From IMG/VR virus record IMGVR_UViG_3300050505_000468, positions 1 through 64,000 of that record: DNA of 64,000 nucleotides. One strand, given 5' to 3'. Every line of letters starts with the position of its first letter. Position 1 is the first letter of the stretch. The notes beneath the pieces are model-generated. The model worked only from the letters and a program-made list of their open reading frames with translations, did no database searches and had not been told where the DNA came from. Below are positions 16,379 through 46,930 of the stretch, piece by piece. Position numbers and translations under genes: made by a program. Origin of the DNA: a virus. Lineage: Duplodnaviria > Caudoviricetes.

Positions 16379-16807
16379 TGAATCGGCGGCTTCGCATCGC
16401 GCACGCTTCCTGGCTCCGCGTTGAAACCAAGTACGCGACCTATGCGATCGCGTTCGAGGGGGACAGCGTGATCGGCGGGGCACCGTACGGAATGCGGGTG
16501 CTCGGTGGCGAGCGGAGTATTCGGCGGGCGCGGGAGCGGCTTGAAAGGATGGGCGCGCGGTGCGACGTGATCGTGTGAAAGAATGGCCGATCATTTTCAC
16601 GGCACCCATGGTCCGTGCGATCCTCGAAGGCAAGAAGGACCGAGTCACTCTGCCGATCGATCTACGCCGTGTGAAACACCCGGTGACGGCGGTGTATTAT
16701 GGGATCTACGAAGCGTTACGGCGACACGGAACATTGGCGCTGGATTGAAAACCCTTGGTGTTGGGCGGTGGCTTTTCGCCGCGTTACCGAAGAAAGCAGG
16801 GACTCCG

Positions 16808-17353
16808 ATGGCGATGGATCAATGGCAATTGCAGCAACTCATCACGCAAGCTGAAAGCGCCGGGCAAGCGCTCGCATACTCGCTGGACAAACTCCAAGCC
16901 ACGGTGGGCCTCAGCCTTTTCCGCGAGCTCTGGGCGATGGCGGGCCCTGAAGAGCGGCAAGAGGTCGTGACCGCTTACCTCGCCGGGATAAAGAAGGACA
17001 TCGAGAAACATGCGGGCTTCGGTGCCGGCGACGTCGTGAGGCAAACGCTCGAAGAGTCGGGCCTCCTTAGAACGCCAGAGTCCTTGGAGGCGCTCCGCAA
17101 AGCCGTGATTGAACGGGCCGTGTTAATCGTGATGGATTCGAGACCTGGCTACTACGACGAGTCGTCCAAGGGTGTCTATCCCGCGATCGTGGCCGCGACC
17201 CACACTATCGTCGGCGAAATCGCCGCCGAGGTCTGCCGCATGAAGCGCGAGCAGATCGCCGAAGCCGTCATGAAGCATCTCGCCGACAACGTGATTGATG
17301 ACGCGGTGAAAGCACACGCCGACTCCCTGATTCGCCGGCTGAAGCCCGCGTGA
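16808..17353 (+). CDS. hypothetical protein
   Basis: Helical ORF, GTGA-coupled to DUF1643. Confidence 0.5.
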   Translation: MAMDQWQLQQLITQAESAGQALAYSLDKLQATVGLSLFRELWAMAGPEERQEVVTAYLAGIKKDIEKHAGFGAGDVVRQTLEESGLLRTPESLEALRKAVIERAVLIVMDSRPGYYDESSKGVYPAIVAATHTIVGEIAAEVCRMKREQIAEAVMKHLADNVIDDAVKAHADSLIRRLKPA

Positions 17354-17892
17354 TCGAAGCCGACACATTGTTCGCGGACGTGCCCGGGATCTTCACTCAG
17401 CGATCGGTAACCGGACAGGAGCACGCGTGGTTCAGCAAGGGCCGTCGAACGCACCGGTACGCGCTTTCCCGGAACTGGAACCCGTGCCGACGAATGCTTG
17501 GCTGGCTCTGCCTAAACCCGAGCATCGCCGGCGCAATCGACAACGATGCGACGGTGCTCCAGATCGAGCACTACACGAACGCCTGGGGGTTCGGCGGCTT
17601 CTACCTCACGAACCTCTACGCGCTCATCGCGACCGATCCGAAGAAGCTCGTTGAGACCGCGACCGAGGACGCGATCGGCGAGCACAACGACCGGTTCATC
17701 GTGGGTGCGGCGGGCGCGGTCGATGCCATCGTCTGCGCCTGGGGCGGCCACAGCATGGCCAAGGCGCGCTGGTCGCAGGTGAAGCCGCTTCTCGAAAAGC
17801 CCCTCTGGTGCCTTGGTCTCACCCGCGGCGGGGACCCGCTCCACCCGTGCCGAAAGTCCCGCGCACTCGTGCATCAGACGTTTTGGGGCTGA
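17350..17892 (+). CDS. DUF1643 domain protein
   Basis: RYALSRNW, LNPSIA, NLYA, CAWG, LHP. Confidence 0.85.
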   Translation: MIEADTLFADVPGIFTQRSVTGQEHAWFSKGRRTHRYALSRNWNPCRRMLGWLCLNPSIAGAIDNDATVLQIEHYTNAWGFGGFYLTNLYALIATDPKKLVETATEDAIGEHNDRFIVGAAGAVDAIVCAWGGHSMAKARWSQVKPLLEKPLWCLGLTRGGDPLHPCRKSRALVHQTFWG

Positions 17893-18226
17893 CGTTCCGG
17901 CCCGTTTTCTTGCCGGAAGGCGGTGGGGCGGGATAGCTTCGTGGGGCGTGATCCAGCCGCGACTTTTCTACTGGGCGGGCTTCGCCCCCGAGGTCAAGGG
18001 CTGGCACTGCCTGTACGTGTATACGGGCTACGGCTGGCAGCAGGTGCCGTCAAAATGCGGGTACAACTTCTACTTCGCCGACGTGAACTGGAACGACGCG
18101 CTCCGCGAGGACTACTCTTTCGACTTCAAAAACCACGCGGGCGGCCCGCCCTATTACTGGGCGGGCGTCTGGTACTACGGCGAGGACGGAGCCTGGCACC
18201 TCGGCGCGTCGTGGCAGAACTGGTAG
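17885..18226 (+). CDS. Trp/Tyr-rich hypothetical protein (start uncertain)
   Basis: Aromatic-rich ORF with high-GC codon usage. Confidence 0.45.
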   Translation, partial: GADVPARFLAGRRWGGIASWGVIQPRLFYWAGFAPEVKGWHCLYVYTGYGWQQVPSKCGYNFYFADVNWNDALREDYSFDFKNHAGGPPYYWAGVWYYGEDGAWHLGASWQNW

Positions 18227-28276: not shown

Positions 28277-29225
28277 CCCCACCTTCTGGAAAGATAAACG
28301 TGTCCTGGTCACCGGTGGCCATGGCTTTCTGGGGCGGCATCTTTTGACCGCGCTCGGCCTGCTCGGTGCCGATGTGCACGCGCCCCCGAAGGAAAAGCTT
28401 GATCTCCTACAGGAACCTGCACTCGCACGCGTGCTTGGCACGAACGTCTATGACCTTGTAATTCACCTTGCTGCGGTGATCGGCGGCATCGGCAGAAATG
28501 CGATCGATCCGGGGCGCATCTTCCGCGACAACATGCTGATGGGCATGAACGTGATCCACTGCGCGCACCTCTACGGCGTACCCAAAGTCGTTTGCCTTGG
28601 GAGCATCTGCGCGTATCCGAAGTTTTGCGACATCCCGTTTCAGGAATGCGATCTGTGGAATGGCTATCCGGAAGAAACGAACGCGCCCTACGGCTTCGCC
28701 AAAAAGATGCTCACGGTGATGAGCGACGCTTACCGAAAGCAGTACGGCCTGAACTCGATCGTCATCTACCCCTCGAACCTGTACGGACCCTACGATCACT
28801 TCGACCTCGAAACCTGCCACGTGATCCCGGCCATGATCCGGAAGTTCACCGAGGCCCGTAATGCACGCGCCGCTTCGGTCACGCTGTGGGGCGATGGCAG
28901 CGCCACGCGCGAGTTTCTGTACGCCCCCGATTGCGTCGAAGGGATCCTCTTGGCGGCTGAGCACTACGATTCGTCCGAGCCCCTGAACCTCGGCACGGGC
29001 GCCGAGATCTCGATAGCCGAGCTCGCCGAGCTCATCCGGCGAATGACCGGCTACGAGGGGAGCGTCGTGTACGACACAACGCGTCCGAACGGCCAGCCGC
29101 GCCGGCGCGTCGATGCAACGCGGGCGCAGAGGCTCATCGGCTTTTCGCCGGCGACTTCACTCGCCGATGGGCTCAGCCGCACCGTCGATTGGTACTTGAG
29201 CTCGGTCGAACGGTCGCGGCTGTAA
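28269..29225 (+). CDS. fcl: GDP-L-fucose synthase
   Basis: [38 protein letters not shown]. Confidence 0.94.
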
Positions 29226-29241
29226 AGATCGTCATCGTCCG

Positions 29242-29909
29242 GTCCCGAGCTACGCGCGCCCGGGATGCTCTTCACCGCGGTATCTCCGCCAGAATAGGTC
29301 CCGAGCTCATCGCGCCCGGGATGCTCTCTTCCTCGTTAAGCCCCAGTCCCGGAACTCTTCGCGCCCGGGATGCTCTTTCGCTGCGGAATGTAGGCATAGT
29401 CCCGGAGCTCATCGCGCCCGGGATGCTTTTTAGCGGAGTCTCAGTTTGGTCCCGATCTTTGTTTCGCGATCAGGATGCTCTTCGTTGATCGACGTCGTCT
29501 TCCCGGCCTGTGCGCAGCCGGAGTGCTCTCTTCTTTTGCTAGCCTCTGCGCGAGCGCCGTCCCGGAGTGTTCGTGCTCCGGAATACTTTACGCTTCTCCT
29601 AGGTAGCCCCGGCGTACTCGCCGCCGGGATGCTCTTACCGAACCAAAGCAATCGAGCGGTCCCCGCCTACTCGTGGCCGGGATACTCTTGCACGTCAAAC
29701 TTTCGGGCCGTCCCGAGCTCATCGCGCCCGGGATGCTCTTCACAACGGCGGCGCCGCATCTCGGAGCGCCGGGTCCCGAGCTCATCGCGCTCGGAGTGCT
29801 CTTCCGGAAGTTAACTTCAGAGATGTCCCTGGCTATGCGCGCCAGGGATGCTCTCATCCGCGAGATCGCGAAGGTCCCGGCCCTACTCGTGGCCAGGATA
29901 CTCTTCCAA
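29242..29909 (-). CRISPR. atypical CRISPR-like array: 13 divergent repeats, ~11-27 nt spacers
   Basis: Repeat left edges at 29242, 29298, 29346, 29399, 29449, ~29500, 29559, 29606, 29659, 29710, 29773, 29825, 29874; GTCCC...GGGATGCTCT core shared with the canonical arrays. Confidence 0.85.
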
Positions 29910-29993
29910 CCGAGCTTGTCAGAGACCGCGGCGCCCGGTGAGAAACGCCGGGTGCGCGAGGCTACTCTACCAGCGCGCTTACTCCGCTGTCGA
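29910..29993 (-). promoter_or_regulatory. leader and promoter of the short-spacer array
   Basis: TCAGAGACC...CGAG leader motifs; TCGACA-N18-TAGAGT on the - strand. Confidence 0.6.
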
Positions 29994-30620
29994 CTACGGC
30001 TGGAGGGACAGGGTGACGAGCGAGGTCGGGACGACGATCAGGATCATCGTGGCGCTCACGGTGCCGTTGGTGCCGGTGCCTACCAGGCTGTAGGTGAACG
30101 TCCCGGCGCCAGGCGTATCGACGCCGAGGTCGGATCCGTACTTCACATCGAGCACATCGATCGCCGGAAGGAGAATGGTGGGGTGCAAGAAGGCTGCACC
30201 GCCGGAATCTACCTGAAGGACGATATCGGCCGTTGTTTCGCCGCCGGCCTCGCAGCGCGCGCTCAGCCAGATCACGACCGACTCGTCGGCCGCTACGGGA
30301 ATGTCCTGGGTGAGCAGGGTCACCGTGCCGTCGACCGGAATATCGTCGCTGTTCTCGAGCACGAAGATCGCGCCGAGGCCGGTGCCCGATGACGACTCCC
30401 TGATCCAGCGGCCTGGGCCATTGATGGGGCCGACCACGTTCACGTTGTCCGGCGTCGCCGTCGAAAACAGGCTGAAGCGGTAGCGAGCGTTGGCCGCCGT
30501 CACCCAGCAGATCGCCCCATCGGGGAGCTTGTCCGTGATGTAGTTCTCGAGTGCATCGTCGGCGCCGAGCACGGTGGCGCGCGGGCCGAGGATACGAAGG
30601 GCAACAGCGGAGATGTCCAT
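29994..30620 (-). CDS. putative virion spike/receptor-binding protein (paralog 2)
   Basis: N-terminal ~75 aa nearly identical to 30635-31273; beta-rich C-terminus. Confidence 0.6.
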   Translation of the reverse strand: MDISAVALRILGPRATVLGADDALENYITDKLPDGAICWVTAANARYRFSLFSTATPDNVNVVGPINGPGRWIRESSSGTGLGAIFVLENSDDIPVDGTVTLLTQDIPVAADESVVIWLSARCEAGGETTADIVLQVDSGGAAFLHPTILLPAIDVLDVKYGSDLGVDTPGAGTFTYSLVGTGTNGTVSATMILIVVPTSLVTLSLQP

Positions 30621-30634
30621 GACGCGGGCGATCC

Positions 30635-31273
30635 TTAGGCGAAAGTGCCGATCGAGGTGAGGGGCGCGGTGTAGGTGACCATGCCGATGCCGGCGATGAC
30701 GAGGGAGTTCCCGCCGGCGAGCGCCGCCGAGATGGCGAGTACGACGGGGCCCGCCTCGGTGGCGTCGATCAAGATCGGCACGTTCACCGCAATCTCGTTG
30801 CCAGCCAGGTTCGGGATGGGGATTTCGATCATCACGCTGGCGCCGGTCGAGCCCTGACGCGCGGTCACGCGCAGCACCGTGGGTGTGGTGACCGTGCAAG
30901 TGATCGTGATGACCGCAGTGCCCACCCGGAAAGCGCCCGGCTCGGCGGGAAACGAATCGGAGGTCGTGATTGTGACCGTGCTCGATCCGCTCGTGATCGT
31001 GCCAAGGCTCGCGCCGCCGTCGAAGGCAAGGCCGGGGTTGCCCGCGCTCTCCTTCAGCCACTGCCCGGGCCCGTGGATCGGATCCACGATATTGATCCCG
31101 TCCGCCGTCGCCGCCGAATCGAGGTGGAGGCGGAAAAGGGCAGCCGCTGCGGTAACCCAGCACACGGACCCGTCGGGCAATGGGTCGGTGATGTAGTTCT
31201 CGAGCGAATCGCCGGCGCCGAGAACGGTCGCGCGGGGGCCTAGAATGCGCAGGGCAACAGAGGATTGGTCCAT
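30635..31273 (-). CDS. putative virion spike/receptor-binding protein (paralog 1)
   Basis: VALRILGPRATVLGA...ENYITD.LPDG..CWVTAA...GPG.W; preceded by a GATTT-class promoter. Confidence 0.6.
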   Translation of the reverse strand: MDQSSVALRILGPRATVLGAGDSLENYITDPLPDGSVCWVTAAAALFRLHLDSAATADGINIVDPIHGPGQWLKESAGNPGLAFDGGASLGTITSGSSTVTITTSDSFPAEPGAFRVGTAVITITCTVTTPTVLRVTARQGSTGASVMIEIPIPNLAGNEIAVNVPILIDATEAGPVVLAISAALAGGNSLVIAGIGMVTYTAPLTSIGTFA

Positions 31274-31420
31274 GAGGATGGATGACACCAGCCTCCTGGC
31301 CCCTGGGTCAATAAATCCACCCAAAACTTTGCCGGGAAAGCGCTCGCCGCGAATCCCATACGCCCGTCTCGGGATATCCGCTCCCGAAATGCTCCGCGAG
31401 CCGACACTCGTCGCATGGCC

Positions 31421-31890
31421 GTCCCGAGCTTATGCGCGCCCGGGATGCTCTTAACAACCTTGCTTGACCGCCGACAAACCGGGGCGGACGTCCCGAACTC
31501 ATCGCGCCCGGGATGCTCTTCACAGTTTGAGTGCCAGCAGCTCGATTTGCTGGCGCGCACGGTCCCGGGCTCATCGCGCCAGGGATGCTCTTCACAGTCC
31601 GGCCAAGGCCATCGGCGAGTGAAGTCGCCGGCGAGGTCCCGAGCTCATCGCGCTCGGGATGCTCTTCACAGCCGGACGATCACATGTGCGTGTCACTCAC
31701 GCGGCGGTCCCGAGCTCATCGCGCTCGGGATGCTCTTCACAGATGGAAAGCGCCGAAAACGGTGGGACCGAAGCGGGAACGTCCCGAGCTCATCGCGCTC
31801 GGGATGCTCTTCACAGTTGAGGAACGCGTAGAGCCTCTTGACCTCTACCATCGTGTCCCGAGCTCATCGCGCTCGGGATGCTCTTCACAG
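31421..31890 (-). CRISPR. CRISPR array, 7 repeats of 36 nt, ~32-38 nt spacers
   Basis: Repeats at 31421, 31490, 31562, 31636, 31707, 31781, 31855; degenerate copies at the left (trailer) end. Confidence 0.96.
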
Positions 31891-31997
31891 TTGTGTTGTC
31901 AGAGACCAGTACGGACGCTGGGTTAGGGTGCGGGTTTCGAGATCCCGGCGAAACTGTACGGTTTGGGGATCCTAACGCCCATCGCAGAAGCCGTCCA
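31891..31997 (-). promoter_or_regulatory. CRISPR leader and promoter
   Basis: TCAGAGACCAG motif; TGGACG-N17-TAGGAT on the - strand. Confidence 0.65.
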
Positions 31998-32039
31998 CGG
32001 TGCGTCCAAATTGCCGCAGCTCAAGGCTAATGTCCGATC

Positions 32040-32087
32040 GGCGAGCGGCGGCGGATGATTTCGATCCACTCCGCCGCTCGCCTTTTT
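32040..32087 (+). terminator. strong hairpin with T-tract (intrinsic terminator-like)
   Basis: GGCGAGCGGCGG/CCGCCGCTCGCC 12-bp stem followed by TTTTT on + strand. Confidence 0.65.
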
Positions 32088-32110
32088 GCGGTCAATGATC
32101 CCGAACTACC

Positions 32111-34831
32111 TCACTCGTCGCCGTTCAGAACCCCGTCATCATCGCGATCGACACCGAACCGATAGCCTGTGCCGAGTGGCATGCAGGTAAAGGTCAGGGC
32201 GTCGTGCGAGGCATGCGCGGACTGAAGCACGGTCGCCGTCGGTACGACTCCCGTCGAGGCCTGGTCAGTTTGGAACTGACTGCCGCCAAGGTAGGAGTAG
32301 CCGTGGACGCAACCGTTGACGACGCCGCGGGCGACAAGGTCACAGTCCCCTGCGTCCGCACGCGCCAGAAGCAGCGTGAGGCGTGCCAAGGATGCGGCCA
32401 GCGGGTGATTGGAAATCGTTGCCTGCTGACCCACGATCGGCTTGTGGTTCGTGGGGAACGAGAACAGGAACGACTCCACTTGACGGCGTAGCGGATCGCC
32501 GGCCTCTCCACTTGGAAACCCTTCAGGGTTCGGAAAGAAGGGGAAGGCTTGCGAAAAGCCGATCGCGTGGAGAAACCTGAACACGCTGTCGGCGTCGCCG
32601 GCATTGCTGTAGCCGAAGCCGCGGATTTGATCACCCATGAAACCCATCTGGCCCGGGATCGGCTCGACACCCGGCGTCCCGTCGGGCAACCCGAACATGC
32701 CGATCTTGGTGTAGAGGTTTCTGAGGTGCGGGATCTTCACGGCTTGATTGAATCCGCCGATCGTCGCTTCCTCGCCGTCCGTTCCGAAGAATCCCGGAAA
32801 CCGGACGCCGAATTCACTGTTGGCTTGCGGATCGAGGCGATGGCAACCCTGGCAACTGATGAAGCCTTCGGATTGTCTGGTGAAGAAGAAATTCTGACCC
32901 GCTGCCTGGTCTGACGTCAGCGAATCGTCGAGATTTCTGTTCGGGTTCGGTGGGTACATCACCTGGGTTTGGAAATCGATGTAGGCCTGCATGTCGGACG
33001 CCGCCAATTCCGAATCGCGACCCAAGAGACCCACGAAGCCTGCTTGGAACTGGCGGAGTGCCTCGCGTTCATTGAAGGCGCCGCTGTCCGGCTGCGCGTT
33101 CGGCTCGGTCAAAGAACCGGTTCGATCGCCACGCCAGTGCATGGGGCCGTGATTGGCAAGACCGCGAAGGCTTTGCGTGGTCATCGGGCCCTTCATCGGC
33201 GCAAAGGACGGATCGGTCACGAACGGGTTCAACATGATCTTGAAGGGGTTGTTGTTCACCTCCGGATCACCATCCGGATCTCCAAGCGTCCAGCCGATGT
33301 CGTCGTTGTCGCTGAACACGTGGCAGGTCGCGCAGGCCGAATCCCCGTGTGCGCTCAGGCGCGCGTTGTAGAGGAATGGCCGGCCGTGCGTGATGCTCGG
33401 CGGCTCGGGGTTGAACATTGCGACGTGATCGACCTCTTGCCGCGATTTGGTCTTCACGACCGAGATCGCGTTGTCGAAGCGCGTGAGCACGTAGAGCTGG
33501 TCGCGGTTCTCGTCGAGAACAATGCCCGTGGGGCCGCCGCCGGACACCGCAATCTGGTCGTCCGCGCTCGGCACGAAGGTGTCGTCCTCGAGCTTCTTCG
33601 TCTTGTAGATGCCTACCTTGCTCGAGCCCATGGCTGCTACGTAGAGGTTCGCCCCGTTCGAGGAGACCGCCATCTGGGTCGGTAGCGCCAAGCTGAGATC
33701 GCTTTCGGCATTCGGCACCGGATCGCAGCAGCTCGAGTAGTCGATATGCTTGTTCAAGTGCCGAGGGGCGACTCCGCCGCCGGGCGTGAGCACCGTGATT
33801 CGATTCCGGTTGTGATTGCCGCGTACGCTGTGGCCCGCGAAGATCCCCGGTCCCTCGAACCGCTGGTCGTTACGCGCGTCGGTGTTCGAGACGTAGATCT
33901 TCCCGCTGACCGGGTTCACGGCCATGTTGTAGAGCACCGTGCCGACGCCCTTGAAAAATCCACTGGGCACTTCCCGTGGGGGATTGGCCATGGCGTCGAT
34001 CGTGAACACGTCTTTGTCGGGCAACGCCAAGTTGACGTGCTCGTCGAACGTGCGGCCGATGTCGTCTACCCAGTGCGTCCCATCGAACTTCACGATCTGG
34101 GCCACGTGCGGCTGGTCGATGCCGGCGTGGTTCGTGGTAGGCGGCGCGTTCGGTAGACCCAAGAATTCGGTGATGATCGTGGTTTGGTTGCCCGTCTTGA
34201 ACCCGGCCGCGTAGACTTTCTTGCCATCCGGGGAGACAGCGAGGGCGCGGGGCGTGTCCGAGAACAGCGTGATGATGCTGATCGGGCCGCCGGTGAGCGA
34301 TGCGTCGAGGTGACCCGTGTCGTAGACCCACACGTCGGCGCGACCTACGCCCGGTGTCGTGAGCTCGGGATCGAACGGGATGTTCTGCCCGCGGTGCGCG
34401 GTCGTAATGAACGCCCGGGAGCGCCCGGCACCGGCGAACACCACGTCCCGCGGTTCATCGCCGACATCGAGCGTTCGGGTGACCTTGCCGGATCCGCTCG
34501 AGTCGACTTCCACGATGCTCACGCTATCGGAGACGTGGTTCACGACCCAGATCTCGCTATTCGTGCGCGCAGCGACTGCCACGGGCTCGAGGCCCACAGG
34601 AATAGAGGCCTTGTGGTTGAGATGCCCATTGCCCGTTTGGAACACTTCGAGCCTGGCATCGGGGCTGTTCACCGCAAAAAGCAGCTGGCCGTTCGGTGAC
34701 AGCGCGAGGGGGCGCACCTGCCCGCTCTCGAATGTCACCACGTTATCGCTAGCAAAAGCTTTCTCGGACCACACCACTCCGATGCATACCAGTACGGCAA
34801 TATGCACCCACAACTTCAATTGGTTTCTCAT
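32111..34831 (-). CDS. secreted YVTN/YncE beta-propeller plus di-heme cytochrome c (peroxidase-like) protein
   Basis: Signal peptide, propeller repeats (VGLEPVAVA, VGDEPRDV), CATCH and CQGCH heme motifs, KIPHLRNLY. Confidence 0.85.
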   Translation of the reverse strand: MRNQLKLWVHIAVLVCIGVVWSEKAFASDNVVTFESGQVRPLALSPNGQLLFAVNSPDARLEVFQTGNGHLNHKASIPVGLEPVAVAARTNSEIWVVNHVSDSVSIVEVDSSGSGKVTRTLDVGDEPRDVVFAGAGRSRAFITTAHRGQNIPFDPELTTPGVGRADVWVYDTGHLDASLTGGPISIITLFSDTPRALAVSPDGKKVYAAGFKTGNQTTIITEFLGLPNAPPTTNHAGIDQPHVAQIVKFDGTHWVDDIGRTFDEHVNLALPDKDVFTIDAMANPPREVPSGFFKGVGTVLYNMAVNPVSGKIYVSNTDARNDQRFEGPGIFAGHSVRGNHNRNRITVLTPGGGVAPRHLNKHIDYSSCCDPVPNAESDLSLALPTQMAVSSNGANLYVAAMGSSKVGIYKTKKLEDDTFVPSADDQIAVSGGGPTGIVLDENRDQLYVLTRFDNAISVVKTKSRQEVDHVAMFNPEPPSITHGRPFLYNARLSAHGDSACATCHVFSDNDDIGWTLGDPDGDPEVNNNPFKIMLNPFVTDPSFAPMKGPMTTQSLRGLANHGPMHWRGDRTGSLTEPNAQPDSGAFNEREALRQFQAGFVGLLGRDSELAASDMQAYIDFQTQVMYPPNPNRNLDDSLTSDQAAGQNFFFTRQSEGFISCQGCHRLDPQANSEFGVRFPGFFGTDGEEATIGGFNQAVKIPHLRNLYTKIGMFGLPDGTPGVEPIPGQMGFMGDQIRGFGYSNAGDADSVFRFLHAIGFSQAFPFFPNPEGFPSGEAGDPLRRQVESFLFSFPTNHKPIVGQQATISNHPLAASLARLTLLLARADAGDCDLVARGVVNGCVHGYSYLGGSQFQTDQASTGVVPTATVLQSAHASHDALTFTCMPLGTGYRFGVDRDDDGVLNGDE

Positions 34832-34906
34832 TAGCCTATTCCTTTATTGGGGTCGCGATGACTCATCATATTTCATTTCTCCCTTTCACTCAAACGCTGT
34901 GCGGTT

Positions 34907-34990
34907 GTCCAGGGCTATGCGCGCCCGGGATGCTCTTCACAGACACCACTGCACGTCCCGGGCTACTTGCGCCCGGGATGCTCTTTACCG
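34907..34990 (-). CRISPR. two-repeat mini-array with a 12-nt spacer
   Basis: Divergent repeats at 34907 and 34955; spacer ACACCACTGCAC. Confidence 0.8.
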
Positions 34991-35791
34991 ATTCACCGCG
35001 TAGGCGGGGATCGGACGGGCCATCGAAAATCGTGTGGGCGTGTGGCCGGGATCGGTCACCATGAGCCCACTTGGCAGTCGTCCCATTTCGGGAATTTCGT
35101 ATTTGCGCCACCCGATGTTGTTCAGGTGCACATCGCGGAGGGCAATGCCCTTCGAGGTCAAGTGGTAGAGCGTGCCGCCGAGAAGTTCAGCGCCGGGGAG
35201 CTCCATCAATTTCTCGGCGTAGTTCAGCATGCCTTCGATCGAGCTTCTGACGCGGACGGACGGTTCGACGTTGTTCCAGGCGCCGTTTTCGTTGTGGTAG
35301 AGCTCGGCGTTCACCTTGTACTTGCCAAGCGCATAGCGGACCCGGTTGAAGCCAGCCTGACCCAGTTCTTGGAGCGTGCGTTCACTTGGGACGACGCCTG
35401 GCACTTGGGCGAGGAACATGTCTGCTTCTTCGCGCACGATCGCGAACACCGGAAACTCTTCCATCTCGAAGGGCATGTCCGGTAACAGACGAACGATGCG
35501 CGCCGACCGGGCAAGGCCGGCCATCAGCAGTGGGTCGAGTGTGCCGAGCTTCGACCACATGGGCGCTTCGGTAGGGTCCACGGTGATCTTGACGACCCAG
35601 GGGGATTCAAGCGCGTAGACGACGCCCCAGTGGCCCATGCCGAGCTCTTCGCCGAGCGGACCGAACTCGAGGGTCTTGGCGATGCGTACGCGCCGATCGG
35701 CCGGGGAAGCCCATTCGCGCAGGGTCGACGCAGGCGTCGGGGCCTTGAGCACCGTCTCGTGCCGGACGGTCGAATCTTGGGGCAGCGTCAT
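34985..35791 (-). CDS. protein kinase-like (PKL fold) protein
   Basis: LGMGHWGVVY, VVKIT, RDVHLNNI, DPG. Confidence 0.75.
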   Translation of the reverse strand: MTLPQDSTVRHETVLKAPTPASTLREWASPADRRVRIAKTLEFGPLGEELGMGHWGVVYALESPWVVKITVDPTEAPMWSKLGTLDPLLMAGLARSARIVRLLPDMPFEMEEFPVFAIVREEADMFLAQVPGVVPSERTLQELGQAGFNRVRYALGKYKVNAELYHNENGAWNNVEPSVRVRSSIEGMLNYAEKLMELPGAELLGGTLYHLTSKGIALRDVHLNNIGWRKYEIPEMGRLPSGLMVTDPGHTPTRFSMARPIPAYAVNR

Positions 35792-36129
35792 TTGGACAGG
35801 CGCCCAAGAAGGAACCCTGCCAGAAGGGAGACCGTGGCCACGCCGATGGCCACGGGAAGCGCGACGCTTTGCTCATCGCAGTTCGGCATTTGATCGATGT
35901 ACCGATTCATCCCGTCCCAGTCGCCCACGTAGCCGCGGATGATCTCGTCGCAGTGCGGGAGCGAGGGAAGGGCGCCCTGCTCTTTCACGCAGTTGTCGGT
36001 GCGCATGCCGTAGCAGTGGGGCAGAAGCGACACGGCGCGAACAGCCAGCGCGTGCTTCTGTTCGGCGGTCAGGTTTTTACCCTGCTCGAGCGCCTGATCT
36101 TTGGTGAGCTCACCGAGGGATGTGTACAT
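35788..36129 (-). CDS. Cys-containing protein with C-terminal TM anchor
   Basis: MYTSLGEL start; hydrophobic C-terminus. Confidence 0.55.
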   Translation of the reverse strand: MYTSLGELTKDQALEQGKNLTAEQKHALAVRAVSLLPHCYGMRTDNCVKEQGALPSLPHCDEIIRGYVGDWDGMNRYIDQMPNCDEQSVALPVAIGVATVSLLAGFLLGRLSK

Positions 36130-36134
36130 GGGAT

Positions 36135-36665
36135 TTACCTGAGGCCGCGTGGGCGCCGGCGGCCGACGTTGAAACACTGGAGCTTGCAAGGCCCGGTGTA
36201 GCCGATCTTCACTTGCATCACTTCTTCCGCGATGGCGTCTGCGATGAATTCTACGGGATCGCTGTCCCGATCTTCCCAGGATCGCATCCAGCGGGCCCAC
36301 TGATCGGGGTTGAAATCCTCGCGCCGGCGGCGGATGGCTGTTCGGTCCCTGCCCAGCGCAAACTCCCCGGGGTAGAGCGCATCGGTCGCGTGGCCGAGCT
36401 CGTGGGATAGGATGGCCAGGACGATCCGCTCGTCCTGTTCGGCGAGCTCGGGTGCCACGATGATTTCTGTTCCATCGTCCCGGCAGGCCCCAAAATGCCG
36501 GGGCGCATCGTGGACCCAGGGAGCCACTACAAACTCTGTCGATTGGCAGCGCACGAGCCCCGCTGTAACGAACTCCTCGAGCACGGCCTCGTAGTACGGC
36601 TCGAGAATCAGACTCGCTTCGTATACCGACAGATCGGTCTGGATTTCGGGGCAGGCACCGTTCAT
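36135..36665 (-). CDS. putative zincin metallopeptidase
   Basis: HELGH motif followed by EFIAD. Confidence 0.65.
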   Translation of the reverse strand: MNGACPEIQTDLSVYEASLILEPYYEAVLEEFVTAGLVRCQSTEFVVAPWVHDAPRHFGACRDDGTEIIVAPELAEQDERIVLAILSHELGHATDALYPGEFALGRDRTAIRRRREDFNPDQWARWMRSWEDRDSDPVEFIADAIAEEVMQVKIGYTGPCKLQCFNVGRRRPRGLR

Positions 36666-37078
36666 CGGGCGTGGCCGCGCGCTCCACCTGCGATCTGCTG
36701 GGCCAGGGCCGCGACCTGCTGCTGCGTAATCATGCCTGCCGCGATGCCAGCGCGGAGCTGGCGCTGCGCTTCATCCGGGGTAATCCGGAGCATCAGCGCT
36801 TCGTGGCACTGCGCGCAGCCGACGTTCGGGATCATGCCGCCTGCTCGGCGATCCATGTTCCAGCCCGGCGGAAGGCGCCCGTTGGCCGCGTACACGAACT
36901 CTTGCCAGAACACGGTGAGGTCATTCGGGTGACCCGACCGGTCGCAGTTCGTCGAGTAGGTGATCCCCTCGTTTCCGATCTTGGTCGTCGCCGAGTAGTG
37001 GTTGTCGACACCGAGGCCCGCAAGGACACCGAAGCCGTTGATGATGTTTCTCACGTCGTTCATGTCGTCGCGGCTCAT
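36662..37078 (-). CDS. hypothetical protein
   Basis: 138 aa; LAGLG motif; CAQC. Confidence 0.6.
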   Translation of the reverse strand: MSRDDMNDVRNIINGFGVLAGLGVDNHYSATTKIGNEGITYSTNCDRSGHPNDLTVFWQEFVYAANGRLPPGWNMDRRAGGMIPNVGCAQCHEALMLRITPDEAQRQLRAGIAAGMITQQQVAALAQQIAGGARGHAR

Positions 37079-37129
37079 AAATTCTGTTCTCCTTCAAACT
37101 TTGCCCATTACATCGTTCGGGGCGGCCAT

Positions 37130-37594
37130 TCAACTATCGGCGGCGCACTGCCGCTCGGTGACGCGCAAATCGTGTACGGCCGACTCCAGGTGGTCGTTCA
37201 TCAGCCGATCGAGCTCGTCGGGCGCGAAGATTTTCAGCGCTTCAGAAATGCCGTGCTCACCAACATACGCCTTGGCCCGGGCTATCGCTTGCGCTTTGAT
37301 CTCGGCCGCCACGGTCGGATCGATCCTGCCCGTCGCGCTTGCCGCCTTGATGTCTGCCACGGTCTCCTGCTGCGTCGCCTTCACCGCGATCACGATCGCG
37401 TCATACAGGCGCGCTACCACGCCCTTCACGTACTCGTGATCGGCGATGGCCTTCCGTGCCATGACCCAGCGCATCGTCTGGGCCGCCAGGCCTCCGATAA
37501 GGCCGATGGCGATGTTCACCAGCAGCGGGGTCAGCGATGCCGTGAGACCGGAGACGAGGTCGGTTAGGAAGGTGGACGCGGCGGCGAGCACCAT
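37130..37594 (-). CDS. holin-like membrane protein (LL-H-like)
   Basis: N-terminal TM, AVKATQQ...AIARAKAY...LESAVHDL pattern. Confidence 0.55.
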   Translation of the reverse strand: MVLAAASTFLTDLVSGLTASLTPLLVNIAIGLIGGLAAQTMRWVMARKAIADHEYVKGVVARLYDAIVIAVKATQQETVADIKAASATGRIDPTVAAEIKAQAIARAKAYVGEHGISEALKIFAPDELDRLMNDHLESAVHDLRVTERQCAADS

Positions 37595-37695
37595 GGGTCG
37601 ATTGTCGCAGCGGCTGGGCAAATGCGTCCAGAAATCCAGCGGGAACTTCGCCTGGTAGGCACGATCCCGGCAGGTTTGTGGAGCATGACGCGCTC

Positions 37696-38932
37696 GCCCC
37701 GAGCTCATCGCGCCCGGGGTGCTCTTTACGGCTGCAAAGGAAAGATTGACCTTGTCCCGAGCTCGTCGCGCCCGGGATGCTCTTACCGCGCGGTCGTTCC
37801 GTCCCGAGCTACGCGCGGCCCGGGATGCTCTTCACAGTTTGCAGGTCCGAGCGATTCACCGCAGTTCTGGCAGTCCCGAGCTCGTCGCGCCCGGGATGCT
37901 CTTCACCGAACGAATTCGATCGTGTCGACGACGGGCATCGCTACCCGTCCCGAGCTCATCGCGCCCGGGATGCTCTTCACAGTCATGGCTCTCACTACTC
38001 GCCGAGGCTTTGGACGCCGTCCCGAGCTATGCGCGCCCGGGATGCTCTTCACAGATTCTGCGACCGAGATCAGGCTAGGGTCATTCGCCGGTCCCGAGCT
38101 CATCGCGCTCGGGATGCTCTTCACAGCTTATACCGCTCGCGTGTCAACCTCGGACCTTGCTCGTCCCGAGCTCATCGCGCTCGGGATGCTCTTCACAGAG
38201 CGCGGGTGCCGACCTCGCCCAATGGGCCGCGTCCGTCCCGAGCTCATCGCGCTCGGGATGCTCTTCACAGAGCGACGACGAAGTGCTCAGCGCGTCGACC
38301 GACATCGAGGTCCCGAGCTCATCGCGCTCGGGATGCTCTTCACAGTTTTGTTCGCAACGATCAACGCGAGAAGCTGCGCAACGTCCCGAGCTCATCGCGC
38401 CCGGGATGCTCTTCACAGCGAGTGACTCGGACGTATCAACGATTCCGGATTCGTGTCCCGAGCTCATCGCGCCCGGGATGCTCTTCACAGAGCAAGCGAG
38501 TGTAGGGGGAGCCGGGCAGCGCGCCAGTCCCGAGCTCATCGCGCCCGGGATGCTCTTCACAGCCCACATTCACCAACTCGCCGTCGCTCTGCATCTCGCG
38601 GTCCCGAGCTCATCGCGCCCGGGATGCTCTTCACAGCGAGGAGTGAGGAAAACAAATGCATGCGTCTTGTCCGTCCCGAGCTCATCGCGCCCGGGATGCT
38701 CTTCACAGTCGGCCTGGTTGTCGCCGCGCTCACTTGGGTCGCTAAAGCGTCCCGAGCTCATCGCGCCCGGGATGCTCTTCACAGAGAGGGCATCGGCGAC
38801 TTCCCCGTCCGTGATCGATCTGAAGTCCCGAGCTCATCGCGCCCGGGATGCTCTTCACAGGTGTTTGCGGTGTGCAGCGTGCTGCCGCACGAATGCGTCC
38901 CGAGCTCATCGCGCCCGGGATGCTCTTCACAG
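37696..38932 (-). CRISPR. CRISPR array, 18 repeats of 36 nt; 15 spacers of ~35-40 nt plus two short trailer spacers
   Basis: GTCCCGAGCTCATCGCGCYCGGGATGCTCTTCACAG repeated from 37696 to 38897. Confidence 0.98.
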
Positions 38933-39050
38933 TTATATTTTCAGAGACCAGCACATTCGCGGGCTTAGAAAGCGGTCTGCGAGTGGCCCATCTGGGTGTG
39001 CGGTATGAGCGGATCCTACAGCCTGGCGGGTGTGCTGTCTATGCTATCAC
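38933..39050 (-). promoter_or_regulatory. CRISPR leader and promoter with operator-like boxes
   Basis: TCAGAGACCAG...TGCGAG; TAGACA-N17-TAGGAT on the - strand overlapped by GTGATAGCA/GACAGCAC. Confidence 0.7.
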
Positions 39051-39131
39051 AAATGGCCCACTTCTATCGGCAGATCTGGGGCTTTGCGAGCAGTGGCTGG
39101 GAACCGGCGATCACTGCACCGCTCGCACTTT

Positions 39132-39533
39132 TCAGCGCCGGGGCGGCAAGACGGCGCAGTCAGCCCAGAAGCCACCGAGTTTTTGGAACATCGCCACGAG
39201 TGGAATGAGGCCAATGGGTTTTTGGATGTACGCATTGGCGCGGGCGAGATAGGCCTTGTCCACGTCGCTTTCGTCGGCCGAGCTCGAAAGGACGATGACG
39301 ACCTGGGTACCGAAATGGGGATTACTCCGGATGTCGTCGATGAGCTCGATCCCGCTTTTGCCGGGAAGCCGGACATCGACCAGCACGAGATCGTAATGGC
39401 CCGCGCCGAGCGCAGCGAGCGCGGAGGCGGCATCGGGCACGGTGTCCACATCGGCCACGAGACCCGCACTGGCGAGGGCCTGCTTGGCAAAGAACACATC
39501 CGTTAAATTGTCTTCGACGATGAGAATGCGCAC
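39132..39533 (-). CDS. single-domain response regulator (Rcp1-like)
   Basis: ILIVEDN, DLVLVDVRLP, VLSSS, ANAYIQKP. Confidence 0.9.
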   Translation of the reverse strand: MRILIVEDNLTDVFFAKQALASAGLVADVDTVPDAASALAALGAGHYDLVLVDVRLPGKSGIELIDDIRSNPHFGTQVVIVLSSSADESDVDKAYLARANAYIQKPIGLIPLVAMFQKLGGFWADCAVLPPRR

Positions 39534-39541
39534 GGGTCTCT

Positions 39542-40312
39542 TTATTGGGTGGCAGCCGGGATCTGAAAACGGATCGTTGCTCCCTTTCCTGTGTCACCCT
39601 CGGCCCAGATGCGCCCATGGTGTTCGTCGATGATGCGCCGGCACATGGCCAGGCCAAAGCCCGATCCGGAATACGTCCCATCGTCCGGGTGCAGGCGCTT
39701 TCCCATCTTGAAAATCGTTTCGGCGTGTGCAGCCTGAAACCCGATGCCGTTGTCGGCGAACGCTACCTCGATCACGGCCCGATCGCGCACCGTGACGGTG
39801 ACGCGGATTTCGGGGCGGGTGCGCCGGTATTTCAGCGAGTTGCTGATCAGGTTCTGGAACACTTGCGTGATCAGCGGGGCCGAGCCGTAGGCGCGCGGCC
39901 AGAGGGCGGGGATTTTGATGATCTTGGCATCCGTTTCGCGGATCGGGATCCACATGGCCTCGATGGCTTCATCGAGTGCGGCGTGTAGATCGAATGGGCC
40001 CATCACGTCGGCAAGATCGTCTTCGTTCCGCGTGGCAGCGCGCATGTAGTCCAGGAAGTCTTGGTGCTTTTTGGCCAGGCGCCGGCAGCCGGCGGTGAGC
40101 TGGCCGATCCATTCCTTGGCTTCGGGATCCAGGTGGCCGTTCAATTTCAGGGCGATGAGGTCGGCGAAGCCGGCGATGGTGCGGAGCGGCTCCTGGAGAT
40201 CGTGACTCATGAAGCATGCGAATTCTTCGAGATCGGTGTTCATGCGCTCGAGCCTTTCTACCATCGGCGCGCACGGATCGTCCGGGGGAACGAGAACGGC
40301 GGGAAGGGTCAT
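39542..40312 (-). CDS. sensorless histidine kinase (HisKA plus HATPase)
   Basis: SHDLQEPLR, QNLISNSLKY, DNGIG, GSGFGLA. Confidence 0.92.
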   Translation of the reverse strand: MTLPAVLVPPDDPCAPMVERLERMNTDLEEFACFMSHDLQEPLRTIAGFADLIALKLNGHLDPEAKEWIGQLTAGCRRLAKKHQDFLDYMRAATRNEDDLADVMGPFDLHAALDEAIEAMWIPIRETDAKIIKIPALWPRAYGSAPLITQVFQNLISNSLKYRRTRPEIRVTVTVRDRAVIEVAFADNGIGFQAAHAETIFKMGKRLHPDDGTYSGSGFGLAMCRRIIDEHHGRIWAEGDTGKGATIRFQIPAATQ

Positions 40313-41352
40313 GGGTGGTGTTCCTTCGGTGGGGCTTCGGGCGGCGGCGCAATGGTGCGCATGCTGAAATAGCCGGCTACTAGCTGGAGGATGACGGCCA
40401 TGATGCCGGCGATGACGGCGTGCCAGATCTTGAACTTGTAGACGCGGGCTTGCTTTTCGTCTTCTTTGCCCACGGCCAGGATCTCGGCGTGGGCTTCCAT
40501 CGTGATGCTCTGGCGCTCGTGCTCGTCCAATTCCTCTTCGTGCTCCGCGAGCTCCTTTTCGACTTCCTGGCGCCACTGGATGAACTCGTTCAGTTGGTGG
40601 CGCATCGGTGGCCGGACGCTCGTGCCGCGGACCAGGATCGTGTCGTGCTCGCTCACGACGGACGAAACGCGTTCGACTTCCTTGATCAGCTGTTCGACCT
40701 TGGCGCGGAGATCGAGCAGAACGGTGACCGTGGTGCGGGAAACGCTGATGACCGCGTCCTCCCGTTCTTCTTTGGCCAGGACCACGGCTTCGTGCTGCCC
40801 GCTTGTATTGGCGCGGCGGAGGTTCGCTTCGGCCTTCTCGAGCTTCCGGTAATTCTCGGCGGCCTCGGGCGGCGCCGGCACGGTGTGGCGCCAGCGTTCG
40901 ACCGCCAGAAGGACGCGCCGGTAGATGCTCGCCGGCTGATCGCTTTTCAGCACGTAGTCGGCGGCGCCGTGGGCCACGAGCCGGCAGGCGAGCTCGATCC
41001 GGCTGTCACCCGTGGCAACGACTATTGGGATATGGGGGAAGCGGCTGTGCAGGAGGTCGAATGTGTCCGAACCGGAGGCGTCGGGCAGATTCAGATCCAG
41101 GAGCACCACGTCCACGTTCCCGCGCTCGAGGTGGCGGAAGGCGTTTTCGAGTGTGGCGGCTTCGTGGACTTCGACGACGGTGGACAGGTCCAGGAAGATT
41201 TGCCGGAGGAGCTTTCGGGCTAGCGGGTCGTCCTCGATCAGCACGGCGCGGAGGTAGCGCTCGGGTCTCGAAATGCGTCCGCTCTTCTCCAGAAACTCGC
41301 GACTTGCCGCACTGGTCAATCTGCCAGGTGGTTTTTTTTCGTCGCCGTCCAT
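40309..41352 (-). CDS. receiver domain plus coiled coil plus C-terminal TM protein
   Basis: LIEDD, VVLLDLNLPD, GAADYVLK; IWHAVIAGIMAVILQLVAGYF. Confidence 0.85.
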   Translation of the reverse strand: MDGDEKKPPGRLTSAASREFLEKSGRISRPERYLRAVLIEDDPLARKLLRQIFLDLSTVVEVHEAATLENAFRHLERGNVDVVLLDLNLPDASGSDTFDLLHSRFPHIPIVVATGDSRIELACRLVAHGAADYVLKSDQPASIYRRVLLAVERWRHTVPAPPEAAENYRKLEKAEANLRRANTSGQHEAVVLAKEEREDAVISVSRTTVTVLLDLRAKVEQLIKEVERVSSVVSEHDTILVRGTSVRPPMRHQLNEFIQWRQEVEKELAEHEEELDEHERQSITMEAHAEILAVGKEDEKQARVYKFKIWHAVIAGIMAVILQLVAGYFSMRTIAPPPEAPPKEHHP

Positions 41353-45526: not shown

Positions 45527-46930
45527 TCAGAATGACGATACGCCCGTGTTGTTCACCATAATTATATGCGGCACAAACGCGCGCTGGCCTAGCCCGCTCT
45601 TGTTCAAATCCGAAAACGGTATGGCCGCTGGCATCGCTCCCGTATTAGCAGTGTAGAGCCCATAAAATGGGTTGAATCCCATGCTGGCGTTGCTCGCGGA
45701 TACAAGGCCAATAGTACCAAGCCTGGCCCCTGCAGTGTTGCTGCTACCCGTAGAGAACAGGAAGATGCCGTACTGGTTCATCGACGTCATCGATATGCCG
45801 GCCGACGAGAGTACTGTGCCAATGTAGTATTTGCTTCCGCGCGCGAACACTGGGCTCGATGACCACTGCGACGCGACCATCGTCAAAAACCGCTGCCCGC
45901 TATACGACTGCGTGTTGTTGGCGTTCGCCGTGAACCCGAACGTGGCGAGTCCTGAGTTCAGCAGGGACAGCGTTCCGCCCGTTGACGTATAGATGCCCAC
46001 TGATATTGAGTACGTGAATGCACTCGAGTCGTTCGATGTGTTCGCGCTGAGCGACAGATCGAACATCAGCGTATTCGCAGTTATATTGTACGGGAATGCT
46101 GCCGCGTGCATCGGCGCGATCTTGAGCGAACTGAATATGTTCGCATTCCATGTTACAAGCCCACCCAGCGTGCCGGTGCCGCCTAATTCCATATTGTCGA
46201 AAAGCTCGGAAAGCGGCACTGTCTGCGAAAAGCTCGCCGTAACCGTCGATCCGGCCATGCCGAACGAAACGTTGTTCGAGTTCGAGAACACTACGGTACC
46301 GGCCGAAACGCTGTTCCCAGAGGCGGAGATGGCGCCGAAGTTCCCGGTGCCTGCACTGATCGAGGCCGTGACGGTTGACCCGGCCATGCCGAAGGAGACG
46401 CTGTTCGCGTTCGAGAACACTACGGTACCGGCCGAAACGCTGTTCCCAGAGGCGGAGATGGCGCCGAAGTTTCCCGTGCCCGCGCTGACCGAACCCGTGA
46501 CGGTCGATCCGGCCATGCCGAAGGAAATGTTGTTCGCGTTCGAGAAGACGACCGTGCCGTTCGAGACGCTGTTGCCGGAGGCGGAGATCGCGCCGAGGTT
46601 TCCGGTACCGGCATTGGCGGAAGCCGTGAGGGTCGAGCCGGCCATGCCGAAGGTGATGTTGTTCGCGTTCCCGAAGCTGAACGTGCCATCGGTAATGCTG
46701 TTGCCTGCGGCAGACAGGGCGCGGGGCGCGGCGTAGTTGCCGGTGACCCGCGAGCTCGCGGACATACCGAAGGTGAGGCCGTTCGAGTTCGCGAAAAGAA
46801 CAGTGCCGGTCGATGCCGTTTGCGTACCGGCCGCGACCGCAACACCGCCGGTGCCGCCGGTGCCGCCGCCCGCGGGAGGCACGCGGGGCGTGCCGCGCGC
46901 CGCAGCGCCAAGTCGAACGCGCGTGGTCAC
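45527..46930 (-). CDS. fibre/spike-like protein with 43-aa Gly/Ser/Asn-rich repeats
   Basis: Repeated GAISASGNSVS.GTVVFSNAN..SFGMAGSTVT; GTGA-coupled start. Confidence 0.7.
   Translation of the reverse strand: MTTRVRLGAAARGTPRVPPAGGGTGGTGGVAVAAGTQTASTGTVLFANSNGLTFGMSASSRVTGNYAAPRALSAAGNSITDGTFSFGNANNITFGMAGSTLTASANAGTGNLGAISASGNSVSNGTVVFSNANNISFGMAGSTVTGSVSAGTGNFGAISASGNSVSAGTVVFSNANSVSFGMAGSTVTASISAGTGNFGAISASGNSVSAGTVVFSNSNNVSFGMAGSTVTASFSQTVPLSELFDNMELGGTGTLGGLVTWNANIFSSLKIAPMHAAAFPYNITANTLMFDLSLSANTSNDSSAFTYSISVGIYTSTGGTLSLLNSGLATFGFTANANNTQSYSGQRFLTMVASQWSSSPVFARGSKYYIGTVLSSAGISMTSMNQYGIFLFSTGSSNTAGARLGTIGLVSASNASMGFNPFYGLYTANTGAMPAAIPFSDLNKSGLGQRAFVPHIIMVNNTGVSSF
46233..46810 (-). repeat. 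intragenic tandem repeat, 129-nt period, ~4.5 copies
   Basis: GCCATGCCGAA at 46254, 46383, 46512, 46641. Confidence 0.85.

Follow-up and report, generated by a model that had tools for sequence, protein, structure and literature searches.

A compact array of diverged repeats on a virus record may hold old, streamlined Cas12m guides of a type V-M CRISPR system

The window analysed here makes up the opening 64 kb of a record of 138,061 bp that its collection classes as a virus, and carries several arrays of one CRISPR repeat. The canonical repeat is 36 nt long, with spacers of about 36–40 nt. One array, termed A, is more compact and its repeats are diverged, which raises the question of what its units are for. 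An earlier note, made from the letters alone, took them as processed, non-cleaving guides or as decoys that titrate a Cas protein. Our preferred reading, held with slightly more confidence than doubt, is that array A is made up of old, streamlined Cas12m guides that probably still function, in a type V-M system of the virus record. The parts of array A are as follows.

29242–29911, minus strand: array A, 13 compact crRNA-like units, each a 31-nt conserved scaffold plus a 16–32 nt guide region
29242, 29298, 29346, 29399, 29449, 29497, 29559, 29606, 29659, 29710, 29773, 29825 and 29874: starts of the array A units, in plus-strand numbering
29912–29993, minus strand: leader of array A, with TCTCTGACAA at 29916–29925, a GC hairpin and a sigma-70-like site, from an alignment of six upstream regions and a consensus scan

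Thirteen copies of the canonical-array repeat family at a 47–63 nt period, as described in the earlier note, are present at 29242–29911. The period in the canonical arrays B and D is 69–76 nt, and in array A neighbouring 34-nt repeat matches are separated by 11–29 nt. A covariance model trained on 52 sequences from the five other arrays, with array A left out, recovers all but one of the 13 units at E ≤ 0.012 (12 units, 11 of them at E ≤ 3.2e-4), all on the minus strand; the unit at 29559 is missed even at E ≤ 1. All five compensatory stems quoted earlier (CCCGGCG/CGCCGGG, CCCTGGC/GCCAGGG, CCGGAG/CTCCGG, GATC/GATC and CCGGC/GCCGG) are there. The near-identical repeats and uniform spacers of an ordinary adaptive array are not what array A shows: 10/13 units differ from the canonical stem at 2–6 of its 16 positions, and near-canonical and diverged units are interleaved with no gradient. 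The guides are mutually different, their similarity being no better than in shuffled controls, and array A therefore did not arise by tandem duplication. It recurs without differences on contigs from other public runs (29298–29737 and 29298–29709), so it is no assembly artefact of a single data set. Rfam gives no match within 29000–39200 at E ≤ 0.1, and the 389-aa gene upstream of array A has no match in PHROG, Pfam or NCBIfam.

Array A is one of six arrays of the same repeat in the record, with 79 units in total. Arrays A–D lie in the window, E and F beyond it.

31366–31892, minus strand: array B, seven canonical or near-canonical units with periods of 69–74 nt (31421–31892) and one degenerate distal unit
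31366–31394, minus strand: the degenerate distal unit of array B, detected by the covariance model only (21.1 bits, E 0.0013)
34907–34992, minus strand: array C, two units with a period of 48 nt
37696–38934, minus strand: array D, 18 units, with 15 canonical intervals (72–76 nt) and two short distal ones (58 and 47 nt) where the repeats are more diverged
112740–113640 of the record, same direction as cas12m: array E
124361–125747 of the record: array F

The Pfam models for Terminase_6N, HK97 capsid and portal have no matches in the record, and ten large ORFs gave no structural PHROG. Since these hallmark models found nothing, viral status rests on the collection label together with phage-like DnaB, clamp and methylase genes. 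Arrays B and C are separated by a gene for a 906-aa protein (32111–34831, minus strand) with beta-propeller repeats and weak matches to di-haem cytochrome c peroxidase and SoxA-like proteins, an unusual cargo on a virus record. The genes between arrays C and D have no match in PHROG, Pfam or NCBIfam. Histidine kinase and response-regulator genes (39542–41352, minus strand) directly adjoin array D, and a 129-nt tandem repeat at 46236–46670 (3.4 copies, 85% matches) lies in long open reading frames on both strands.

The earlier note had left the cognate effector to be found; it is encoded in the same record.

110760–112700 of the record, outside the window: cas12m (646 aa), directly upstream of array E and in the same direction

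Array E starts about 36 nt past the cas12m stop codon at 112700. The best solved relative of the 646-aa protein is PDB 23vw, ‘CRISPR-associated DNA-binding protein Cas12m’ (E 5.8e-46), and Cas12m2 (8hhl) is matched at E 3.6e-14. Its best PADLOC model is Cas12u1 (E 1.1e-75), the older name of a V-M effector, type V-M having formerly been called V-U1. A TnpB-type zinc-ribbon domain is also recognized (Pfam Cas12f1-like_TNB, E 7.7e-07). By sequence, the protein is Cas12m. Pfam models for Cas1, Cas2 and Cas4 have no matches across the 138-kb record, while the controls were detected. Alignment of both strands of the whole record revealed no convincing antisense copy of the repeat outside the arrays that would signal a tracrRNA; opposite-strand repeat matches are only the palindromic stems within the arrays. 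With Cas12m homology, an adjoining co-directed array, no adaptation genes and no anti-repeat, the locus has the testable defining features of type V-M.

Published Cas12m effectors are reported to bind DNA without cutting it, to use a 17-bp duplex and to process their own crRNA (PMC10442227, PMC11013384). Because the clade of the present protein is uncharacterized and its RuvC positions read D, E, D in an alignment, it is the relatives that suggest that the element’s Cas12m does not cleave.

The kinship between the arrays and this effector bears directly on the second proposal of the earlier note, that array A makes decoys. An array A that acts as an anti-CRISPR RNA of the Racr or Cracr type, soaking up or redirecting a host Cas12m, would have precedent in phage-borne repeat mimics, which are described as sequestering or reprogramming Cas proteins (10.1101/2024.10.29.618823, 10.1101/2023.03.03.530964). 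Racr and other solitary repeat units resemble array A in being virus-borne copies of CRISPR repeats. However, those units mimic host repeats and need no guide, whereas the repeats here are those of the element’s own arrays, next to its own cas12m, and are joined to unique guide regions of at least 16 nt, for which a decoy has no need. The same repeat has no matches in viral contigs, and its core has no exact match in genome contigs, covering one genome each of 185,579 species. Titration of a Cas protein thus finds no support, and we consider a decoy function very improbable.

On the minus strand an 8-bp hairpin closes the repeat, after which come AC and the spacer. This is the layout of Cas12 systems, and at array E it runs in the direction of cas12m. 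Across the 79 units, 585 of 632 stem cells pair on this crRNA strand against 530 of 632 on the opposite strand; the difference arises because many pairs are G-U on the minus strand and A-C on the plus strand. All 40 array matches of the covariance model are on the minus strand, and the leader motif stands at the same end of five arrays. The functional RNA strand of the arrays is the minus strand.

Hairpins could in principle serve DNA or the opposite transcript instead, as terminators or insulators stacked on the plus strand past the GDP-fucose synthase gene, or as palindromes maintained by template switching at the DNA level. Array A does begin 16 nt past the stop codon of that plus-strand gene, and on the plus strand each hairpin is followed by a T-rich tail (TGCTCTT or TGCTTTT). 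Yet pairing is poorer on that very strand, a terminator scan returns two sites in 3.3 kb where 1.8 are expected, and the same units form canonical arrays adjoining cas12m. Correction of palindromes at the DNA level, for its part, would not yield the G-U/A-C strand pattern. Any such non-guide role is extremely improbable.

The statement that array A keeps a homologous leader with its own -35 and -10 holds as regards a shared motif, the promoter-like site being a consensus match only. Arrays A, B, D, E and F all have TCTCTGACAA immediately upstream of their first repeat, as read on the minus strand. Leader similarity extends over about 200 nt between B and D, and over about 60 nt for A. The sigma-70-like site of array A (29993–29964, minus strand) has a -35 of TCGACA, an 18-nt spacing and a -10 of TAGAGT, with 9 of 12 positions matching the consensus; two such sites were found against 0.5 expected in shuffles.

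Divergence of the repeats has not eroded their structure. In the 79-unit alignment 92.1% of stem cells are paired, seven of the eight pairs have changes on both sides, and sliding the stem partner lowers pairing to 19–57%. None of 500 column shuffles reaches the observed stem values, although such shuffles overstate independence because the units are paralogues; despite this paralogy, double changes are many and lie in different stems. Individual array A stems depart from the canonical one at 0–6 of 16 positions (38 changes in all), and 98 of 104 stem pairs are kept. Simulations that scatter an equal number of stem substitutions at random keep 77.6 ± 2.9, and none of 20,000 reaches 98. The hairpin retention noted earlier therefore lies far above that of shuffled-mutation controls. 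Arrays E and F retain their stems much as array A does, with a few units of array F having poor ones. The repeats are under selection for the hairpin, and it is possible that their diversification shields the array from recombination.

The conserved part of the unit is shorter than the repeat. In 49 diverged units conservation starts at the scaffold sequence AAGAGCA, with the first 5 nt of the 36-nt repeat free to vary, and none of the 79 units has a truncated scaffold. The Cas12m2 scaffold, also of 36 nt, is reported to be disordered over its first 7 nt at the 5′ end (PMC10442227). The position of this boundary suggests that the element’s Cas12m may process its crRNA upstream of the scaffold. 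Pairing of the conserved 5′ AGAGCAU with the loop, as a pseudoknot, was also considered, and was dropped as inspection by eye showed no covariation.

Taking the guide region as the period minus the 31-nt conserved scaffold, the six arrays provide 73 intervals. Guide regions measure 38–48 nt in 30 of these and 13–37 nt in the other 43. Among the short ones, 41 are at least 16 nt long, nine are of 16–17 nt, two are of 13 nt (both in array E) and none falls at 0–12 nt; in array A all 12 intervals have guide regions of 16–32 nt. Cas12m2 is described as forming a 17-bp guide–target heteroduplex (PMC10442227), and designs for MmCas12m are reported to have used 20-nt spacers in initial tests and 17-nt spacers throughout later experiments (10.64898/2026.10.26.761838). 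Since 41 of the 43 short guide regions reach 16 nt, about the 17 bp of Cas12m2, they are better seen as full-length guides for this effector than as partial ones. Spacers also shorten as the repeats beside them diverge (Spearman rho 0.70, P 4e-12, 73 intervals). As length falls continuously with divergence across the six arrays, array A represents the old end of a continuum and not a separate system. The whole set looks like a series from young canonical to old compact units, with a floor that looks like a functional minimum.

This changes how the proposal of processed, non-cleaving guides can be read. Units that appear selected and processable, with covarying stems, scaffold, leader and promoter-like site, together with a Cas12m in the record, favour it. 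The part that finds no support is shortness as a device against cleavage, because the effector family only binds in any case. In our reading, the guides of array A are non-cleaving owing to the effector and not owing to their length.

Matches to the guides were sought within the element and outside it. Only two canonical spacers stand out in the record-wide search, and one of these belongs to array B.

29144–29170, plus strand: partial match to an array B spacer, identical over 26 consecutive bases but mismatched at guide position 1

The spacer adjoins 31636. The bases it matches belong to the 3′ end of the GDP-fucose synthase gene and have GGCTT as their 5′ flank; the spacer may come from a related element. 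The other is a canonical array D spacer (unit 38527) that matches 108673–108706 of the record over 34 of 36 nt. This second site follows a terminator-like hairpin and precedes the ribosome-binding site of the next gene. Its T/C-rich flank reads TTTTTCT, and cas12m lies some 2 kb downstream. Such a self-match fits an effector that binds without cutting, and could point to self-regulation.

For the short guides, the PAM-flanked targets within the element that had been envisaged do not emerge: exact seeds of 11–14 nt give nothing above reversed-sequence controls in the 138-kb record, nor is a match of the CreA/CreR type to the promoter of a cas or toxin gene seen there. With the first 17 nt of the guides and up to two mismatches, the record yields 21 matches against 14 for reversed guides. 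Exact seeds over the record number six at K = 12 (four and two for reversed guides) and one at K = 13 (one and none), the sole K = 13 match being that of a canonical spacer.

These results weigh on the idea of a dedicated regulatory system, in which guides of a class apart from the immune arrays would be purposely short and would partly match host or element promoters in the manner of CreA, CreR or scaRNA. The effector is by family a DNA binder, and the intergenic match of the canonical array D spacer makes self-directed binding plausible in this element. But Cas12m has no need of short guides to avoid cutting, the lengths run on continuously from those of canonical units, and exact seeds of the guides are no commoner in the element than those of their reversed counterparts. 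We judge a purpose-built regulatory class improbable.

Searches beyond the record were similarly silent. All guides against 46 loci with Cas12m relatives (44 viral, two genomic) give matches at chance level only. In public phage records array D has no match, and array A, compared with 50,697 of them, has six at E 0.8–3, which we take as chance; one 20-nt guide of array A has no match in viral contigs. We suspect that the targets of the compact guides are host genes or competing mobile elements that have stayed constant over long times.

A lack of targets is also what a relic would show, an array of once functional guides now decaying, with hairpins that record past selection and spacers shortened by deletion bias. 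No target of a short guide appears in the record, the 46 relative loci, the 50,697 phage records or, for one guide, the viral contigs. The link between repeat divergence and spacer shortening is as slow decay would give it; the distal ends of arrays B, D and E hold the shortest and most degenerate units, like ordinary trailer ends, and there are two 13-nt intervals and some broken stems. However, stems with up to 6–7 of 16 positions changed still pair, which indicates that selection acted through most of the divergence. Neutral deletion should respect neither a limit below which no interval falls (0–12 nt) nor the integrity of the scaffold, yet both are respected throughout the 79 units. Array A, moreover, keeps its leader and promoter-like site, and its diverged and near-canonical units are mixed and not graded. 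Decay thus accounts for the trend of length with divergence, but it leaves the length floor, the compensatory changes and the intactness of the scaffolds without explanation, and we regard it as unlikely, though it deserves more weight than a purpose-built regulatory class.

Comparison with other loci places the old, streamlined guides of our preferred reading in a wider setting. Relatives of the Cas12m protein at E ≤ 1e-10 number 56; identity reaches 41% in the best, and several sit on contigs of 70–185 kb. No close relative was found in viral contigs. The two relatives on genome contigs (a Planctomycetota MAG and an uncultured Sorangium MAG) were considered as pointers to the host and set aside, being too distant at 25–28% identity. 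An alignment of 22 relatives led to Cas12m relatives on 44 IMG/VR contigs of 5–406 kb, most with an array directly downstream. A usable repeat consensus was obtained for 22 of the 44 loci, from which three were left out because their consensus was identical to that of another locus, leaving 19 distinct loci. Intervals of at most 62 nt make up 28 of the 231 in these other viral V-M loci, and 11 of the 19 have at least one. The corresponding figure in the present record is 37 of 73, compact and with diverged repeats, so that it shows in extreme form a tendency found among viral V-M arrays. One of the loci, L033, has a compact array at 16456–17321 (periods 47–75) whose diverged repeats keep the stem, beside a canonical array at 17384–17917, and in another, L009, distal units carry compensatory changes.

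One metagenome contig matches array E, but being 100% identical over 1637 nt it adds nothing. The region is present in five rhizosphere runs of 2017, and a strain about 97% alike in a run of 2023. One contig of this strain is collinear over 29427–29872 with 13 substitutions and three gaps. Divergence in array A is 3.6%, against 2–8% in the flanking genes; as array A diverges about as they do, the strain comparison gives no sign of extra constraint on the guides. A canonical-array contig of the same strain has a different spacer. These observations hint at inheritance of array A as one block, against turnover of the canonical arrays.

We picture the working of array A as follows. It would be transcribed on the minus strand from its own leader, and the element’s Cas12m would cut the transcript upstream of each 31-nt scaffold, so that each unit would yield a crRNA made of scaffold and a 16–32 nt guide. 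With the 17-bp duplex and silencing by binding of the Cas12m family, the short units would be full guides, and as such could block transcription or replication of their targets. Because the record is without cas1, cas2 and cas4, old units would not be replaced; their repeats would drift under selection for hairpin and scaffold, and their spacers would lose bases down to the functional minimum.

A bolder form of this reading takes the compact arrays as guide operons that are hard-wired and passed on vertically. Adaptive memory would then have been fixed as some 40 Cas12m guides, trimmed to a minimal 16–17 nt and set in diversified repeats, which silence genes of the host or of rivals during infection while the canonical arrays still turn over. 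We offer it tentatively, as possible but on present evidence rather doubtful. If it were true, the element would contain a multiplexed CRISPRi programme of natural origin, and would reveal in nature the minimal guide and scaffold of Cas12m.

Type V-M and its mechanism are already known. The characterized systems (MmCas12m/Cas12m2, GoCas12m and MsCas12m) share with the present one a homologous effector, a 36-nt repeat whose hairpin adjoins the spacer, and a locus in which neither adaptation genes nor an anti-repeat were found. The present locus differs in its place on a virus record, its six dispersed arrays with 79 repeats and the compactness of half of its intervals. CRISPR-associated transposons (the homing guides of V-K and I-F3) provide a precedent for fixed, inherited guides that have atypical repeats or short spacers and are still used. 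They employ a different effector family and single guides with a known target; here whole arrays are concerned. Cas12d arrays, again with another effector family, are described as having spacers of 17–19 nt that the effector still uses. The mini-arrays of CreA, CreR and crlRNA and the viral Cracr RNAs are reported to resemble array A in degenerate repeats that keep an effector-binding hairpin and in guides that bind rather than cut. As described, however, those have one or two repeats only, and their spacer matches in part the promoter of a cas or toxin gene, whereas array A has 13 units, no such promoter match was found, and its effector is by family non-cutting.

The closest viral counterpart is MvCas12m of myxophage MV-1, for which the accessible text reports a phage cas12m by an array, no cas1, cas2, cas4 or tracrRNA, and no spacer targets found (10.64898/2026.09.14.751636). 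That array has a single consensus repeat and eight spacers, and the same text does not mention compact or diverged arrays. The September 2026 preprint terms it the first phage Cas12m, whereas relatives occur on 44 IMG/VR contigs and show virus-borne Cas12m genes to be common. A non-exhaustive literature search, covering text passages, returned no description of compact, diverged V-M arrays.

Cas12m is in development as a small programmable DNA binder, and the element supplies 79 natural scaffold variants together with a natural lower limit of guide length, showing which scaffold positions and how much guide Cas12m needs. It also displays the evolution of arrays without adaptation, in which structural selection governs the drift of the repeats and the spacers shorten to a lower limit, and raises the question of what a virus does with a binding-only CRISPR system unable to acquire spacers itself. 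If the compact guides have conserved host targets, they would amount to a natural multiplexed gene-silencing programme of a phage.
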